A stretch of 56,918 bases of DNA from a virus. Its lineage: Duplodnaviria; Caudoviricetes. The stretch covers positions 1 through 56,918 of IMG/VR virus record IMGVR_UViG_3300043410_002441; one strand, given 5' to 3'. Positions within the stretch are counted from its first letter, which is position 1, and each line of letters starts with the position of its first letter. Below are positions 8,305 through 12,767 of this stretch, in pieces. Below the pieces are notes generated by a model, which was not told where the DNA came from, did not search any database, and saw only the letters and a list, made by a program, of their open reading frames with translations. A program made the position numbers and the translations under genes.

Positions 8305-9225
8305 TTAATCATCAGAAATATTAAAACCCATTTTTTCATCAGCAATTTTCTTATTTTTTAATCGCTTGATTGTTTCATCATAAGGGTTTTTAAGAATGTA
8401 TAATGATATAAAAGTTTCTTTAAGATGAGCCATTGTATATCCATTGGTGTCTTTTACCAATTTTTCGATATCATATAACTTTTGATCTTCCTCATCTAAA
8501 ATATTTTTAAAATAAGCACCTCTATCCTCTGCGGTTGGTTTTTCAATCTTATATTTCTTATCAAATCTAGATGGTCTATCTTTAATCCTAGCTGGTATTT
8601 GTTCTAAGTTGTTTGTTGTTGCAACATATACAACATTTTCAATTGAGTTTAAACCATCTAAAAAATTTAAAAATACTTCTTCACCAAATTTTTGTATAAC
8701 CAAATCAATATCTTCAATAATGCAAAGTATCGGCCTTGTCTTTTCAACCTTTCTAACCAATTTAGCCAACTCAACCCAGTTATAGGGGTTATCAAAATAT
8801 ATTGATAGTCCGTTATATTCCTTTAACTTATCAATAAGTAGATAAATTAAAGATGTTTTACCACATCCAGGGTCACCGTATAAAATAATACCTCTTTTTG
8901 GTGTTAAGTTGTATTTTTTAAATCGATCAATGTTATCCCAAAAATTAACCAGATCAGATATAATCTCGTTATGTGGAGATGATGGTAAATGAAAAAACTC
9001 GTCACTTTTATATTCTAGCTTTGAAATACCAAAGCCATTAGCATCATTATATATCATGCTATATAAACCAGATTCAACGGTTGTAACTGGTTTAAAATTA
9101 AAAAAGAAATCGGTGTTGTTTATTGTGTACCATGATTCTATTGATGGTAATAGTCTTTGAACATGATCTGTTAGACTAACCTCTAACGGCACAGTTTCAT
9201 CATATAAGTCGTCTTGTTCTAGCAT
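8305..9225 (-). CDS. AAA+ ATPase
   Basis: Walker A GDPGCGKT, Walker B IIEDID, TTN sensor, RPSRFD arginine finger. Confidence 0.92.
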   Translation of the reverse strand: MLEQDDLYDETVPLEVSLTDHVQRLLPSIESWYTINNTDFFFNFKPVTTVESGLYSMIYNDANGFGISKLEYKSDEFFHLPSSPHNEIISDLVNFWDNIDRFKKYNLTPKRGIILYGDPGCGKTSLIYLLIDKLKEYNGLSIYFDNPYNWVELAKLVRKVEKTRPILCIIEDIDLVIQKFGEEVFLNFLDGLNSIENVVYVATTNNLEQIPARIKDRPSRFDKKYKIEKPTAEDRGAYFKNILDEEDQKLYDIEKLVKDTNGYTMAHLKETFISLYILKNPYDETIKRLKNKKIADEKMGFNISDD

Positions 9226-9754: not shown

Positions 9755-10057
9755 ATGAACGTAGGAAACATCAAAAAATGGTCTTTCGGTGAGATGACAT
9801 CGAATCCAGACGGAAAAACATCAGTAACATCAACATCAGGCTTCATTATTGTAATGGTTGGCTGTCTTTCATTCCTATTAGGGGTGATTGATAAAATGTT
9901 CATTGACAAAAGCATGGACGTTATTAACCAAGCTGTTATGTTTACAACAATTGGGGCTGCATTAATCGGTTATAAAAACTACACTGGTCATAAGGTGTCA
10001 ATAGCGAAGTCAAAAACCGAAACAACTACTGAGGAAACCCCAGAAGAAGTTAAATAA
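9755..10057 (+). CDS. Small two-TM membrane protein, holin-like
   Basis: Two hydrophobic segments and a charged C-terminal tail; has its own TATTTATA motif at 9731. Confidence 0.55.
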   Translation: MNVGNIKKWSFGEMTSNPDGKTSVTSTSGFIIVMVGCLSFLLGVIDKMFIDKSMDVINQAVMFTTIGAALIGYKNYTGHKVSIAKSKTETTTEETPEEVK

Positions 10058-10060
10058 GAT

Positions 10061-10145
10061 ATTCCGCTATAAGCGGTGTTTTAGGACCGTTCCAGTTATG
10101 GGACAAAAAAAAGCCAGGATTCGCTACCCTGGCTTTACTTTTTTA
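10061..10145 (+). ncRNA. Candidate structured RNA/3'-UTR with bipartite complementarity to 23S rRNA H69-H70
   Basis: Three hairpins. TTAGGACCGTTccAGTTAtGG (10081-10101) and TTCGCTACC (10120-10128) are the reverse complement of 23S CCGTAACTATAACGGTCCTAA and GGTAGCGAA. Confidence 0.5.
10105..10144. terminator. Bidirectional intrinsic terminator between convergent genes
   Basis: AAAGCCAGG/CCTGGCTTT stem with A8 before and a T-rich tract after. Confidence 0.85.
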
Positions 10146-10160
10146 TGGTAAATTTAAAAA

Positions 10161-10874
10161 TTATTCGAAACTTTTCTTTAAATCAATTACATCATCAATA
10201 ATTTCTAATGAAGGTTTTTGATTTTTCATCTCATTTAGTTTGGATCTAACTTCCAATAATTTCTTAACGACAATTATATCATCAGACTCATTAATTGTTT
10301 TTTCAACCATATTTTGAGCACTTTCAATTAAATTTGAATAATATGTGTTAATCGCAGATTCATCATTTTCAGCAAATAAGTTTAAAACTTTTACTTGCTC
10401 TTCATTCAATTTTGATATCTTATCGGTTAAGCTTTCGTTGATCTTATCAATTGATTCCTTTAGGTTAGCTTCACTGTTTAAATCTCTCGTTAAATATTTA
10501 ACTAAATTTGTTTTATGCTTAACTTTTTCAATCAAAGACAATTTTTTATTAAAAACAAGAGCGTCAATACTTTCATTAATAGTATTATCAATTGCTATAA
10601 TATTTTCAGTTAGATTTCTTAAAGGTTCAATTTTTGTTAAATCAAAAGATTTTAAGTGGGTGATTGATTCTTCAACAAATTCTTTTGCTATATCTTCATT
10701 TTCAAATCGCATTGTATTTAACAAATTATAAACCTCGTTAAATTCTCTTAATACATTATTTTCTTTTAAAACTTTCACGTATTTAGCGAAAGATTTTTTA
10801 AAATCTTTTTCACCTTTTTCTTGGTAGGTTTTTTCTAGATCCGAAAGGATGCTTTCTTTTAATTGTCCAAACAT
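10161..10874 (-). CDS. Hypothetical head-assembly/core protein
   Basis: Helical, with many [ILV]xE sites; downstream of portal and preceded by the late motif. Confidence 0.6.
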   Translation of the reverse strand: MFGQLKESILSDLEKTYQEKGEKDFKKSFAKYVKVLKENNVLREFNEVYNLLNTMRFENEDIAKEFVEESITHLKSFDLTKIEPLRNLTENIIAIDNTINESIDALVFNKKLSLIEKVKHKTNLVKYLTRDLNSEANLKESIDKINESLTDKISKLNEEQVKVLNLFAENDESAINTYYSNLIESAQNMVEKTINESDDIIVVKKLLEVRSKLNEMKNQKPSLEIIDDVIDLKKSFE

Positions 10875-10913: not shown

Positions 10914-12767
10914 TTATACTAATAAATCGTCAATTTCGTCAATAGTTTTTTTAAGAGCTTCGTTGATTAATTTATTTTTAGCCTCTAATTTTCTTTTAGT
11001 GATTTCAGCTAAAGGTTCTTCAGCACCAGGTAATTCGGTACCACCAGCTTCTGGTGCTGGTGCTCCAGCCTCTGCCCCTGGAACTTCAAGAGGTGTTGTA
11101 AAATCTGTTCCACCAGCCAATTCTTCACCACCAGCTTCTGGTGCTGGTGCTTCAGCACCGCCACCACCGCCAACAGAACCACCAAACCCACTAGGGGTTT
11201 CTGTTCCACCAGCAGCTCCACCAAGTGTCATATTATTTGGGTCAATCTTATAGATTTTATAGATGTCTCTGAATATACCAGTTTGTTTAATAGTTTCACC
11301 AAGGGCTTTAATTTCTTCACCGCCAGCTTTTTCAACAGCTTGTCTTTGAATATCAAGTTTGATTTCGTCATCACTCATATTCAAGATTTCTTTTTTAGCA
11401 TATGTCATAGACATTGCACCAAATCCGTTACCAGCGTCAGAAACCGCATCACGATATAACGTAACTTTTTCCTTCCAGTTTTGGATTTTAAGCATTTCAG
11501 CTTGAGTTGATGGGCTTGTTAGTGTTAATGTAAAGTTTTCTAGATCATCTGTAAACCCTTTAGTGTATAAATGGATAATAGCCATTTTATTTAACTCCTG
11601 TATAAGAGCTTTTTGTACTCTATGTACAGCTCTAGCAAAACGAACATCAAGTATTGCTAAATTTTTACCATCACCAGTTGTTTCTTCAAAACCAATAAAA
11701 GCTTTTGGCACTCTAAGTGCCGCTAGCATTTTCTTTTGGATGTATTCAATGTCGGCAATCTCCGATAGATTTTGAGCCCCAGGAAGCGTTTCAATTGGCA
11801 TTGCAAGGCTTGGGTCTCTAACTGGGATAAAATAGTCCTGATCGACAGCTAATGCGTTATAGCGGGTATCTTGTTGACCGTTGTTTTTATCAACCATGTT
11901 AACTCTTTTAAAGTTATTGGCGATTTTATCAACATAAGCATCAACATCCTTATCATCCATGTTACCAACAAAAATTTTATATACACGTCTTTCTGGTGCT
12001 CTGGTTGTACGATAAACCAACATCGCGTCTTCAGATAATAAAAGTTGTTTCCAGATTCTTCTTACTTTTTCCAACATAGATGTGCCATAAGGTAATCTTC
12101 TATCATCACCAAGTAATCTAAAGTGAGAAACTTCAAATGAATTAAATTCAACGTTTTTATCTTTCCAGAAGAATTTAATATTTTTTTCTTTTTGTTGATC
12201 GTCTAAACTAGTCACTTTTGAAAAGCCTGGTTCAGATCTAGTCATTTCAATGTTAGGTAACTGGGTTACACCAACAATACCTTGATTAGGTACGATCTTA
12301 TTGTAAACAAAATTATCACCGTATTTACAAACGTTTCTAGCCCAAGAAGTTAAATTGGCGTTTATATCTAAAATATTTTCAAATAAATCGGTTAATTCAT
12401 TTTTAATTCTAGAACTATCAGAATAAATTGTTAAAACTTTACCGTTTTCATTTGCCGTTGTCGCTTCTTCAGCAAAAATATCCAGTGCAACAGAAATTTC
12501 TGGTGTATATTCCATAGCTTCATAATCATAATATGAAGCAATCCTTGTTGGTTCGTAATAAACAGCTTTTTGATAAAGTTCATTATCAATTTTTTTCCAC
12601 TGGTTTTGTAAATAAAGCGTTTGTTGCGCCTCTAATTTTTTTTGTTCCAAATCATCACCACTTAATCCGTTAAATGAATTAGGATCGATGACATATTTAG
12701 GTCCATCGACTTCATTGCCGAGAACTTTATTTAATCTTTGGAATATTGTTAATCCATTATTTGCCAT
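10914..12767 (-). CDS. gp20: Portal protein, T4 gp20-like
   Basis: EDAMLVYRTTRAPERRVYKIFVGNM, DYFIPVR, IETLPGAQNL, ALRVPK. Confidence 0.95.
   Translation of the reverse strand: MANNGLTIFQRLNKVLGNEVDGPKYVIDPNSFNGLSGDDLEQKKLEAQQTLYLQNQWKKIDNELYQKAVYYEPTRIASYYDYEAMEYTPEISVALDIFAEEATTANENGKVLTIYSDSSRIKNELTDLFENILDINANLTSWARNVCKYGDNFVYNKIVPNQGIVGVTQLPNIEMTRSEPGFSKVTSLDDQQKEKNIKFFWKDKNVEFNSFEVSHFRLLGDDRRLPYGTSMLEKVRRIWKQLLLSEDAMLVYRTTRAPERRVYKIFVGNMDDKDVDAYVDKIANNFKRVNMVDKNNGQQDTRYNALAVDQDYFIPVRDPSLAMPIETLPGAQNLSEIADIEYIQKKMLAALRVPKAFIGFEETTGDGKNLAILDVRFARAVHRVQKALIQELNKMAIIHLYTKGFTDDLENFTLTLTSPSTQAEMLKIQNWKEKVTLYRDAVSDAGNGFGAMSMTYAKKEILNMSDDEIKLDIQRQAVEKAGGEEIKALGETIKQTGIFRDIYKIYKIDPNNMTLGGAAGGTETPSGFGGSVGGGGGAEAPAPEAGGEELAGGTDFTTPLEVPGAEAGAPAPEAGGTELPGAEEPLAEITKRKLEAKNKLINEALKKTIDEIDDLLV

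Follow-up and report, generated by a model that had tools for sequence, protein, structure and literature searches.

A widespread family of structured phage RNAs carries invariant single-stranded stretches antisense to the helix 69-70 region of 23S ribosomal RNA

Does a short intergenic stretch of a phage genome encode an RNA that pairs with bacterial 23S ribosomal RNA (rRNA)? The question is raised by positions 10061-10145 of a 56,918-nucleotide (nt) DNA sequence (positions 1 to 56,918 of IMG/VR record IMGVR_UViG_3300043410_002441; Duplodnaviria, Caudoviricetes), the whole of which is hereafter called the window. An initial annotation of this region proposed a phage antisense RNA against helices 69 and 70 (H69, H70) of 23S rRNA. 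The region belongs to a real and widespread family of structured phage RNAs whose invariant single-stranded parts are antisense to 23S positions 1920-1937 (Escherichia coli numbering). The reading preferred here is that this non-coding RNA pairs with the junction of H69 and H70, in 50S subunits that are probably immature or inactive; we give it a probability of about 0.5 on the strength of sequence comparisons. The core idea of the annotation, a + strand antisense RNA, gains from conservation, covarying stems, wobble-making variants and a second rRNA target, whereas the 'holin' context that came with it finds no support.

The window copy lies in a 3' untranslated region (3'-UTR), in the gap between a 100-amino-acid (aa) open reading frame (ORF) at 9755-10057 (+) and a convergent ORF at 10161-10874 (-). 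The annotation had placed it in the 3' part of the upstream gene; it begins 6 nt past the TAA stop codon of that gene (10055-10057), which stands 23 nt before segment 1. The upstream product has two hydrophobic stretches, and its 'holin-like' label finds no match in PHROGs or Pfam. The + strand RNA folds into three hairpins (minimum free energy -27.2 kcal/mol, z -3.0), and the segments and hairpins occupy the positions first described. Hairpin 1 (10064-10076, CCGC(T)-ATA-(A)GCGG, seen in the sequence and in the minimum-free-energy fold) and hairpin 2 (10089-10104, GUUCCA-GUUA-UGGGAC, with one U.G pair) enclose segment 1, TTAGGACCG (RNA UUAGGACCG, 10081-10089), which is single-stranded in the window fold with a mean unpaired probability of 0.78. 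An A8 linker (10105-10112) leads to hairpin 3 (10113-10133, GCCAGG-ATTCGCTAC-CCTGGC), whose stem GCCAGG/CCUGGC carries a 9-nt loop, AUUCGCUAC, with an unpaired probability of 0.97. Segment 2, TTCGCTACC (RNA UUCGCUACC, 10120-10128), lies almost entirely in this loop. A U-rich tail (UUUACUUUUUUA, 10134-10145), the likely RNA 3' end, completes the element. Hairpin 3 has the G+C-rich stem and following U-run of an intrinsic terminator (+ strand tail TTTACTTTTTT), a description that does not extend to the conserved loops, and the position of the element, at an mRNA 3' end with a terminator and U-tail, is that of 3'-UTR-derived, Hfq-type small RNAs. On the other strand the A8 linker becomes the U-run of the same hairpin; a terminator search called the hairpin at 10110-10136 as a minus-strand terminator with a T-run, the 9-nt loop on the + strand being longer than the loop limit of the method.

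Compared with E. coli K-12 rrlH (rrnH operon, fetched by accession), segment 1 is the exact antisense of 23S 1920-1928, which comprises the 3' strand of H69 and the CUAA junction, and segment 2 is the exact antisense of 1929-1937. The two segments abut on the rRNA at 1928/1929 and occur in swapped order in the phage, and the 21-mer that begins with segment 1 (TTAGGACCGTTCCAGTTATGG, 10081-10101) agrees with the antisense of 1908-1928 at 18 of 21 positions, with mismatches facing A1916 and U1917 and one U.G opposite G1910; the annotation was right on each of these points. Bases 10094-10101 of hairpin 2 (AGUUAUGG) could alternatively pair with 23S 1908-1915. The junction of the segments is presumably also the top-strand cut position of the homing endonuclease I-CeuI, as the annotation had stated. 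A passage of PMC8551244 gives an I-CeuI cassette that holds the antisense string in contiguous form. The target stretch is upper-case, that is, highly conserved, in the Rfam consensus of bacterial large-subunit (LSU) rRNA, and Bacillus subtilis 23S rRNA carries it too, as judged from a probe oligonucleotide quoted in PMC3241648.

Within the window alone, such similarity is at chance level. The window holds 659 9-mers antisense to 23S (about 626 expected) and 57 11-mers matching it in either sense (about 78 expected), and by our own arithmetic about 0.3-0.6 abutting 9+9 pairs no more than 60 nt apart are expected per window. The duplex energy of the whole RNA with 23S is no better than that of shuffled sequences, 105 of 200 being as good. 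Short pieces find their best 23S site where it is expected: a 26-mer duplex at 1907 reaches -29.6 kcal/mol, which 3/300 shuffles equal, against 7/300 for segment 1 alone and 100/300 for loop 2 alone. So far, then, the element is what an ordinary bidirectional terminator with a chance resemblance to rRNA would provide, and because the match in a single window is at chance level, its significance has to come from conservation in other phages.

That conservation is extensive. A scan of IMG/VR for TTAGGACCG-N15-45-TTCGCTACC returned at least 120 matches, and after two further scans at least 162 distinct motif cores were found in viral contigs, in the same swapped order. Among the matches listed, the pattern occurs in many unrelated-looking contigs of 4-353 kb, and spacings cluster at 47/48 and 60-63 nt rather than being flat. 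In 596 Gb of prokaryote genomes, the 20-base form has only two exact matches; both are chance-like and without stems, and one lies inside a 606-aa ORF on the opposite strand. Chance matches are therefore rare, and the motif appears proper to viral contigs. It was further matched in 13 DNA sequencing runs from freshwater or aquatic metagenomes, with no RNA run among the matches listed, and the label 'late-expressed' given in the annotation finds no support there.

Synteny gives the same picture. Among 80 loci picked by portal similarity, 46 encode a homologue of the convergent 237-aa protein, and in 24 of 24 syntenic loci (at least 59% identity of that homologue, downstream DNA present) both segments are letter-perfect while all three stems and the upstream gene vary. 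The stem of hairpin 1 changes there from CCGC/GCGG to CCGTC/GACGG, and that of hairpin 2 from GTTCCA/TGGGAC to GTTACCG/CGGTAAC; CCCC/GGGG, GTGGTC/GACCAC and CCAC/GTGG are also seen as hairpin-1 stems among relatives. Eighteen loci that are more distant differ in gene order and lack the motif at the corresponding position, and four have no downstream DNA. The T4-type portals of carriers diverge to 32% identity. The annotation had held that stems kept while the segments drift would speak against it, and the outcome is the opposite, with segments invariant and stems variable. The loops of terminators are not normally conserved, and a loop and an upstream stretch that stay invariant across at least 162 cores while the stems change contradict the idea of a terminator with chance rRNA similarity, which we regard as barely credible.

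The variants are informative in kind as well as in number. When cores were anchored on the hairpin-2 loop and loop 2, with segment 1 left unspecified, segment 1 was TTAGGACC in 99 of 111 distinct sequences, and the remaining 12 each had a single change (CTAGGACC in 6, TTAGGGCC in 5 and TTGGGACC in 1). The A-to-G change in TTAGGGCC faces U1923 and that in TTGGGACC faces U1926, so both make G.U pairs with 23S; so does a C-to-U change facing G1922 in TTAGGATCG, carried by a compact copy elsewhere in the genome of a complete 299-kb relative. Three of the four segment-1 variant types are thus wobble-making, compared with 4 of the 24 possible single changes (p ~0.02, an estimate), a pattern that fits pairing to a fixed partner. 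In the converse test, anchored on segment 1 and the hairpin-2 loop, loop 2 was ATTCGCTAC in 103 of 134 distinct sequences; a further 17 retain CGCTA (CGCUA), with changes confined to the first three loop bases or the last C, 9 read GGAGTCGTGCCC (RNA GGAGUCGUGCCC) and 5 read TTAACGCCATT(C/A) (RNA UUAACGCCAUU(C/A)). The subfamily with GGAGUCGUGCCC as its third-hairpin loop is found at loci L273, L278, L282, L297, L298, L304, L305, L307 and L311. Overall, most variants of the two stretches are wobble-compatible or fall at helix ends.

Two further sets of contacts are predicted. The alternative loop UUAACGCCAUU(C/A) sits on covarying stems in five carriers; the four loops ending in CAUUC are 9-nt antisense to 23S 1968-1976, and the fifth (CAUUA) is antisense over 8 nt, to 1969-1976. 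This second target lies 31 nt beyond the first. Since 15 of 300 random 12-mers reach a 9-nt run anywhere in 23S, landing so near is about a 1-in-500 event. In addition, among the 93 cores of at least 52 nt, a length that leaves room for an inserted hairpin after segment 1, a Watson-Crick run of at least 5 nt to 23S 1904-1919 (the 5' strand and loop of H69) occurs in that region in 84, compared with 16/93 for shuffled controls and 21/93 for a reversed target.

The family has two architectures. In the compact form, which includes the window copy, hairpin 1 is followed by UUAGGACC, hairpin 2, a linker and a terminator hairpin with loop AUUCGCUAC, and the terminator stem shows compensatory changes at 7/7 pairs among 19 sequences. 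In the large form, (CC)UUAGGACC lies in the loop of the first helix, sometimes with an inserted hairpin; the loop of the second hairpin, GGCUGCU, pairs with a 3' tail, AGUGAGC, to form a pseudoknot, and the third hairpin, again with loop AUUCGCUAC, lies between the second hairpin and that tail. Across 66 large-form sequences, 97.4% of cells are paired, compared with 80.6% in shuffles (0/500 reach the observed value) and 28-45% with slid partners, and there are 121 double-sided changes. The pseudoknot blocks (alignment A2, columns 56-62 and 106-112) themselves covary, GGGUGCU occurring with AGUGACC and GGCCACU with AGUGUGGC. Each block is also a 7-nt antisense match to the GTPase-associated centre of 23S (1070-1076 and 1099-1105; for example, L250:11681-11777, - strand); this double match to one rRNA domain may be chance, since the covariation makes pairing within the RNA seem the selected property. 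A subclass (L229, L237, L271, L289 and L320) has an rRNA-sense CCUAAGG further downstream; it is able to base-pair, within the RNA, with the CCUUAGG in segment 1 and could serve as a built-in mask of the seed.

Covariance models were built as the annotation had advised: R1 from the large class, without compact sequences, and R2, which has the window copy among its training members. With R1 the motif copy is the only match in the window (13.8 bits, E 0.17), and with R2 it scores 74.4 bits. It also has the features by which we define the proposed family, namely a UUAGGACC-like stretch, 15-45 nt of helices and a hairpin with an (A)UUCGCUAC loop, all following a stop codon on the coding strand. 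Among relatives chosen by portal, R1 gave no convincing copy in Microcystis phage Mel-JY01, Flavobacterium phage immuto_3-5A or an uncultured 484-kb phage, nor did R2 in the first two of these, and contigs of 'Marine virus AG-345-D19' have no R1 match.

Which strand matters is decided by the family rather than by the window, where fold energy gives no strand call (z -3.2 for minus, -3.0 for plus). The minus strand carries rRNA-sense strings, the window terminator is bidirectional and the contiguous form of the string is the I-CeuI site, all of which would suit a remnant of recombination with ribosomal DNA, a degenerate target of a homing endonuclease, or an RNA that imitates rRNA or acts as a decoy towards a ribotoxin or a protein that binds 23S. 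The flanking genes, however, lie on the strand of the motif, and one pseudoknot pair is G.U in 63/66 large-form sequences, which on the opposite strand is an A.C mismatch. A minus-strand transcript in the window should stop at about 10105, before it reaches the complement of segment 1. The swapped halves lie 30-50 nt apart and leave no contiguous site for an endonuclease, and a motif with covarying stems is kept in phages whose portals are only 32% identical. We therefore consider the mimic or decoy and the recombination relic, both entertained in the initial annotation, very improbable, along with any other minus-strand or DNA-level feature.

A more serious alternative is that the element is a conserved structured 3'-UTR or terminator RNA whose invariant loops bind a protein or ligand or make tertiary contacts, the 23S match being fortuitous or left over from its origin; RNA polymerase, an RNA-binding protein of the phage or the host, or a nuclease acting at a processing site could be the binder. 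An elaborate scaffold of three helices and a pseudoknot is what protein- or ligand-binding RNAs have, the place just past stop codons is fixed, RNAalifold offers an alternative pairing of loop 2 (UCGCU) with the 3' tail (AGUGA), and 9 of the 134 copies have a loop without an rRNA match. Left unexplained would be two invariant stretches of 8-11 nt antisense to abutting rRNA bases (about 1e-6 for two given 9-mers, by our own arithmetic), an alternative loop antisense to 23S 1968-1976 and segment-1 variants that are mostly G.U-compatible. Nor is any protein gene constantly linked to the motif, whose neighbours include ribonucleotide reductase, terminase, a methyltransferase and a GNAT gene. We judge such a binding site distinctly less probable than pairing with 23S rRNA, yet the strongest of its competitors. 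A + strand RNA with single-stranded parts antisense to H69/H70 is the only reading we found that explains the conservation pattern, and it is partly supported.

Genomic context was assessed in 104 distinct copies that are flanked on both sides by 400 nt or more. Most (81/104) lie 0-40 nt past the end of a same-strand ORF, 73/104 have a same-strand ORF starting no more than 150 nt downstream and only 1/104 is inside a long ORF. In 15/104 (for example, L083, L085, L104 and L117), the upstream stop codon is the TAG inside UUAGGACC, which would place a terminating ribosome on segment 1. In many large-form copies a sigma-70-like promoter (TTGACA-17-TATACT) and a TTTTAGGAG Shine-Dalgarno sequence for the next gene come within about 15-40 nt downstream (for example, L094:2574-2707, L223 and L309), which indicates that the RNA ends a transcript rather than leads one.

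The closeness to stop codons invites a reading in which the element acts in cis, holding the 50S or 70S ribosome released at the stop close to the mRNA and thereby favouring re-initiation on the following gene or protecting the 3' end, by analogy with the calicivirus TURBS. The frequent same-strand ORF shortly downstream and the overlapping TAG codons would suit it. The window copy, however, is a terminator facing a convergent gene and offers no target for re-initiation, many large-class copies have their own downstream promoter and the frame relation of the element to the stop codon is not fixed. The H69-H70 target is moreover far from the mRNA path on the ribosome. A tether of this kind therefore seems unlikely.

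Another feature of the complementarity is that the two antisense stretches meet exactly at one phosphodiester bond, 1928/1929. The RNA might position an enzyme there, as a guide in the manner of small nucleolar RNAs (snoRNAs) that places a nuclease, modification enzyme or helicase. Large-class copies are commonly followed by a gene for a product of about 86 aa and then by one for about 355-390 aa; the 86-88-aa product at two tested loci has only sub-threshold Pfam matches, to T4 DsbA, and one longer product has radical-SAM and SPASM domains. The downstream genes are, however, not one family (phrog_25854, radical SAM, no match) and are absent beside the window copy. A sigma-70-like promoter separates many large-class copies from them, so that RNA and genes are probably not one unit, and boxes like those of C/D or H/ACA guides were not seen by eye. 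We think a guide RNA improbable. Overall, the neighbours are varied and include ribonucleotide reductase, a small gene with a sub-threshold match to T4 DsbA and a radical-SAM protein. At one locus a permuted tmRNA gene (RF04321, 95.6 bits; L199:2899-3122, +) lies about 1.3 kb downstream of a copy at L199:1515-1561, and at another, ten tRNA genes (L111:3692-6453, +) adjoin and converge with a compact copy (L111:6490-6539, -).

Each genome tends to hold one copy. G001, whose complete genome of 352 kb has terminal repeats, contains a single exact copy, as do G004 and G005; the reversed control pattern is absent from them, and the covariance models find one copy in the window. G001 additionally has a diverged paralogue (C1:76939-77016, +; locus L325; 38 bits with R1) that keeps the pseudoknot; its loop UCGCUACCU is 9-nt antisense to 23S 1928-1936.

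The family appears to be previously undescribed, in that no prior description was found. At gathering score, no Rfam 15 family is present in the window, and at E up to 10 only sub-threshold matches, aligned to the terminator, fall on the region; Rfam likewise has no match at the motif in 14 other motif-bearing loci. ARAGORN found no tRNA or tmRNA genes in the window, and neither the window region nor a large-class copy had a blastn match among 50,697 GenBank phage records. No description of a phage RNA pairing with 23S was found in the literature searched, and where papers carry both strings, most of them judged by title, the strings serve as probes for 23S or as I-CeuI sites. The 8,495 unnamed candidate RNAs catalogued from IMG/VR in PMC10690425 may include the motif; the passages of that paper covered here link no candidate to rRNA complementarity.

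Several known kinds of element were considered and rejected. The 9 nt of loop 2 (AUUCGCUAC) do not agree by eye with the 7-nt T-loop pattern. Guide halves in H/ACA and C/D RNAs are colinear with the target, and these classes are defined by their boxes; here the halves are swapped, and no such boxes are among the invariant columns of alignments A1-A3. For a ribosomal-protein leader or rRNA mimic, the strand shared with the flanking genes has the wrong sense, being rRNA-antisense, and no tested neighbour encodes a ribosomal protein. A group I intron guide would have the P10 and then the P1 strand, contiguous, in a core of 200 nt or more interrupting a gene, whereas the motif has a P1-like and then a P10-like stretch, 30-50 nt apart, in about 85-110 nt of intergenic sequence with no Rfam intron match. 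A single copy per genome excludes a repeated promoter, a processing site or a miniature inverted-repeat transposable element, the promoter that often intervenes argues against a riboswitch for the downstream genes and the swapped, separated halves are not a homing-endonuclease site.

What would such an RNA bind? In the Rfam bacterial LSU consensus, 1906-1911 and 1919-1924 are the two strands of H69, and a UAA triloop follows, closed by C1925:G1929. The junction strands 1930-1934 and 1963-1971 have no pairing partners, H71 is entered through G1935:C1962, and 1972-1975 belong to H67 as its 3' strand. What the phage stretches address is thus the H69 3' strand together with the two junction strands that surround H69-H71. 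H67-H71 are called 'highly unstable' in 45S precursors in a passage of PMC3737534, and H68-H71 are described in PMC11831132 as disordered in free 50S subunits after HflX action, an inactive pool; these are places where an antisense RNA could bind.

The model proposed here is as follows. Region 10061-10145 would be the 3'-terminal ~85 nt of a + strand transcript, in which variable, covarying helices present two invariant stretches, (CC)UUAGGACC(G) and AUUCGCUAC(C). These would form Watson-Crick pairs with 23S 1920-1937, that is, with the 3' strand of H69 and the unpaired junction to H70/H71, and in many members an extra hairpin would add contacts to the 5' strand and loop of H69. As the target is buried in the mature 70S ribosome, the partner is most likely nascent 23S rRNA, a late pre-50S particle or free, inactive 50S with H68-H71 disordered. 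With its stretches in swapped order, the RNA would close around its target as a padlock does, the helices in between bridging the two short duplexes, and the bound large subunit would be unable to form bridges B2a and B3 or would be held by the RNA. Transcription and processing of the element, like its rRNA binding and its effect on ribosomes, are predictions from these comparisons. Tentatively, and at slightly less than even odds, we propose that large T4-like aquatic phages encode a dedicated RNA which, by pairing with the H69-H70 junction while 50S subunits are nascent, immature or inactive, controls the number of host large subunits entering translation.

Several observations weigh against pairing with 23S rRNA. 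In the mature 50S subunit, 1920-1924 are paired in H69 and the junction is packed, so an unfolded target is needed. Ribosomes are very abundant, and one small RNA would require high expression or a target that is a sub-population. Pairing by a 9-nt hairpin loop is probably limited to about 6-7 pairs, and further strain comes from the swapped order. The GGAGUCGUGCCC loops of 9/134 copies are complementary to E. coli 23S, 16S and 5S rRNA over at most 6-7 nt, which is not above random, and in the G001 paralogue loop 1 is replaced by CCUUAAACUAC..., without notable rRNA complementarity; two-site pairing is thus not universal. In the subclass with the downstream CCUAAGG, segment 1 is partly paired within the RNA. 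The complete relative G002 has no recognisable copy, its best model match being a generic terminator, and the RNA is therefore dispensable. Finally, the copies are kin by descent, and sequence counts do not equal independent events.

The window phage is a distant T4-like phage, and its record is 19% complete by CheckV, complete relatives being about 300 kb. The 237-aa ORF (10161-10874, -), which shares the terminator and has no assigned function, is followed by a T4 gp20-like portal gene (10914-12767, -). The best cultured relatives of this portal are in Microcystis phage Mel-JY01 and Flavobacterium phage immuto, at about 40% identity, and its C-terminus is a low-complexity tail rich in Gly, Ala, Pro and Glu. 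An ORF at 8305-9225 (-) is similar to AAA-type ATPases in several PHROGs.

Should the pairing prove real, the bacterial world would have its first natural antisense RNA directed at rRNA, and phages an RNA-only route to the most conserved part of the large subunit. That part, the helix-69 region, makes up the central bridge between the subunits and serves release and recycling factors. The RNA would add a new class to the phage takeover tools, so far mainly proteins, and provide a natural template for antisense inhibitors of ribosome assembly. With a universal target the motif may work across hosts, which would explain both its spread among phages with about one-third portal identity and its conservation across such divergent phages.

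Known systems resemble the element in part. It shares with intrinsic bidirectional terminators the third hairpin, the T-run and the upstream A-run, but its 9-nt loop is invariant, and the large-class hairpin with the same loop is not followed by a T-run. CopA/CopT and RNA I/RNA II are loop-displayed antisense RNAs, and OxyS-fhlA is a case of two-loop pairing; with these and with 3'-UTR small RNAs, the phage element has in common seeds in loops or linkers and two contact sites and, in the compact form, a terminator, a U-tail and an A-rich linker, whereas its target is rRNA rather than mRNA and one seed is the terminator loop itself. Viral UTR elements such as the calicivirus TURBS, which pairs with 18S rRNA, plant-virus 3' translation enhancers and the tRNA-shaped structure of turnip crinkle virus, which binds the 60S subunit, are likewise placed in UTRs near stop codons with complementarity or affinity to rRNA. 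They are eukaryotic, their targets are mostly small-subunit rRNA or the P site, and their effect on translation is in cis; the phage element targets domain IV of 23S rRNA, and the window copy ends its transcript with no downstream cistron. There is a further parallel with the rRNA-pairing RNAs of eukaryotes and archaea (box C/D and H/ACA guides and U3-type chaperones), which also present short antisense stretches in a scaffold to rRNA that is not yet folded. H/ACA pockets are colinear with their target, whereas the phage motif is bacterial, lacks visible boxes, has its halves in swapped 'padlock' order and has no known partner enzyme; if it pairs as proposed, it would be a bacterial counterpart of these eukaryotic small RNAs.

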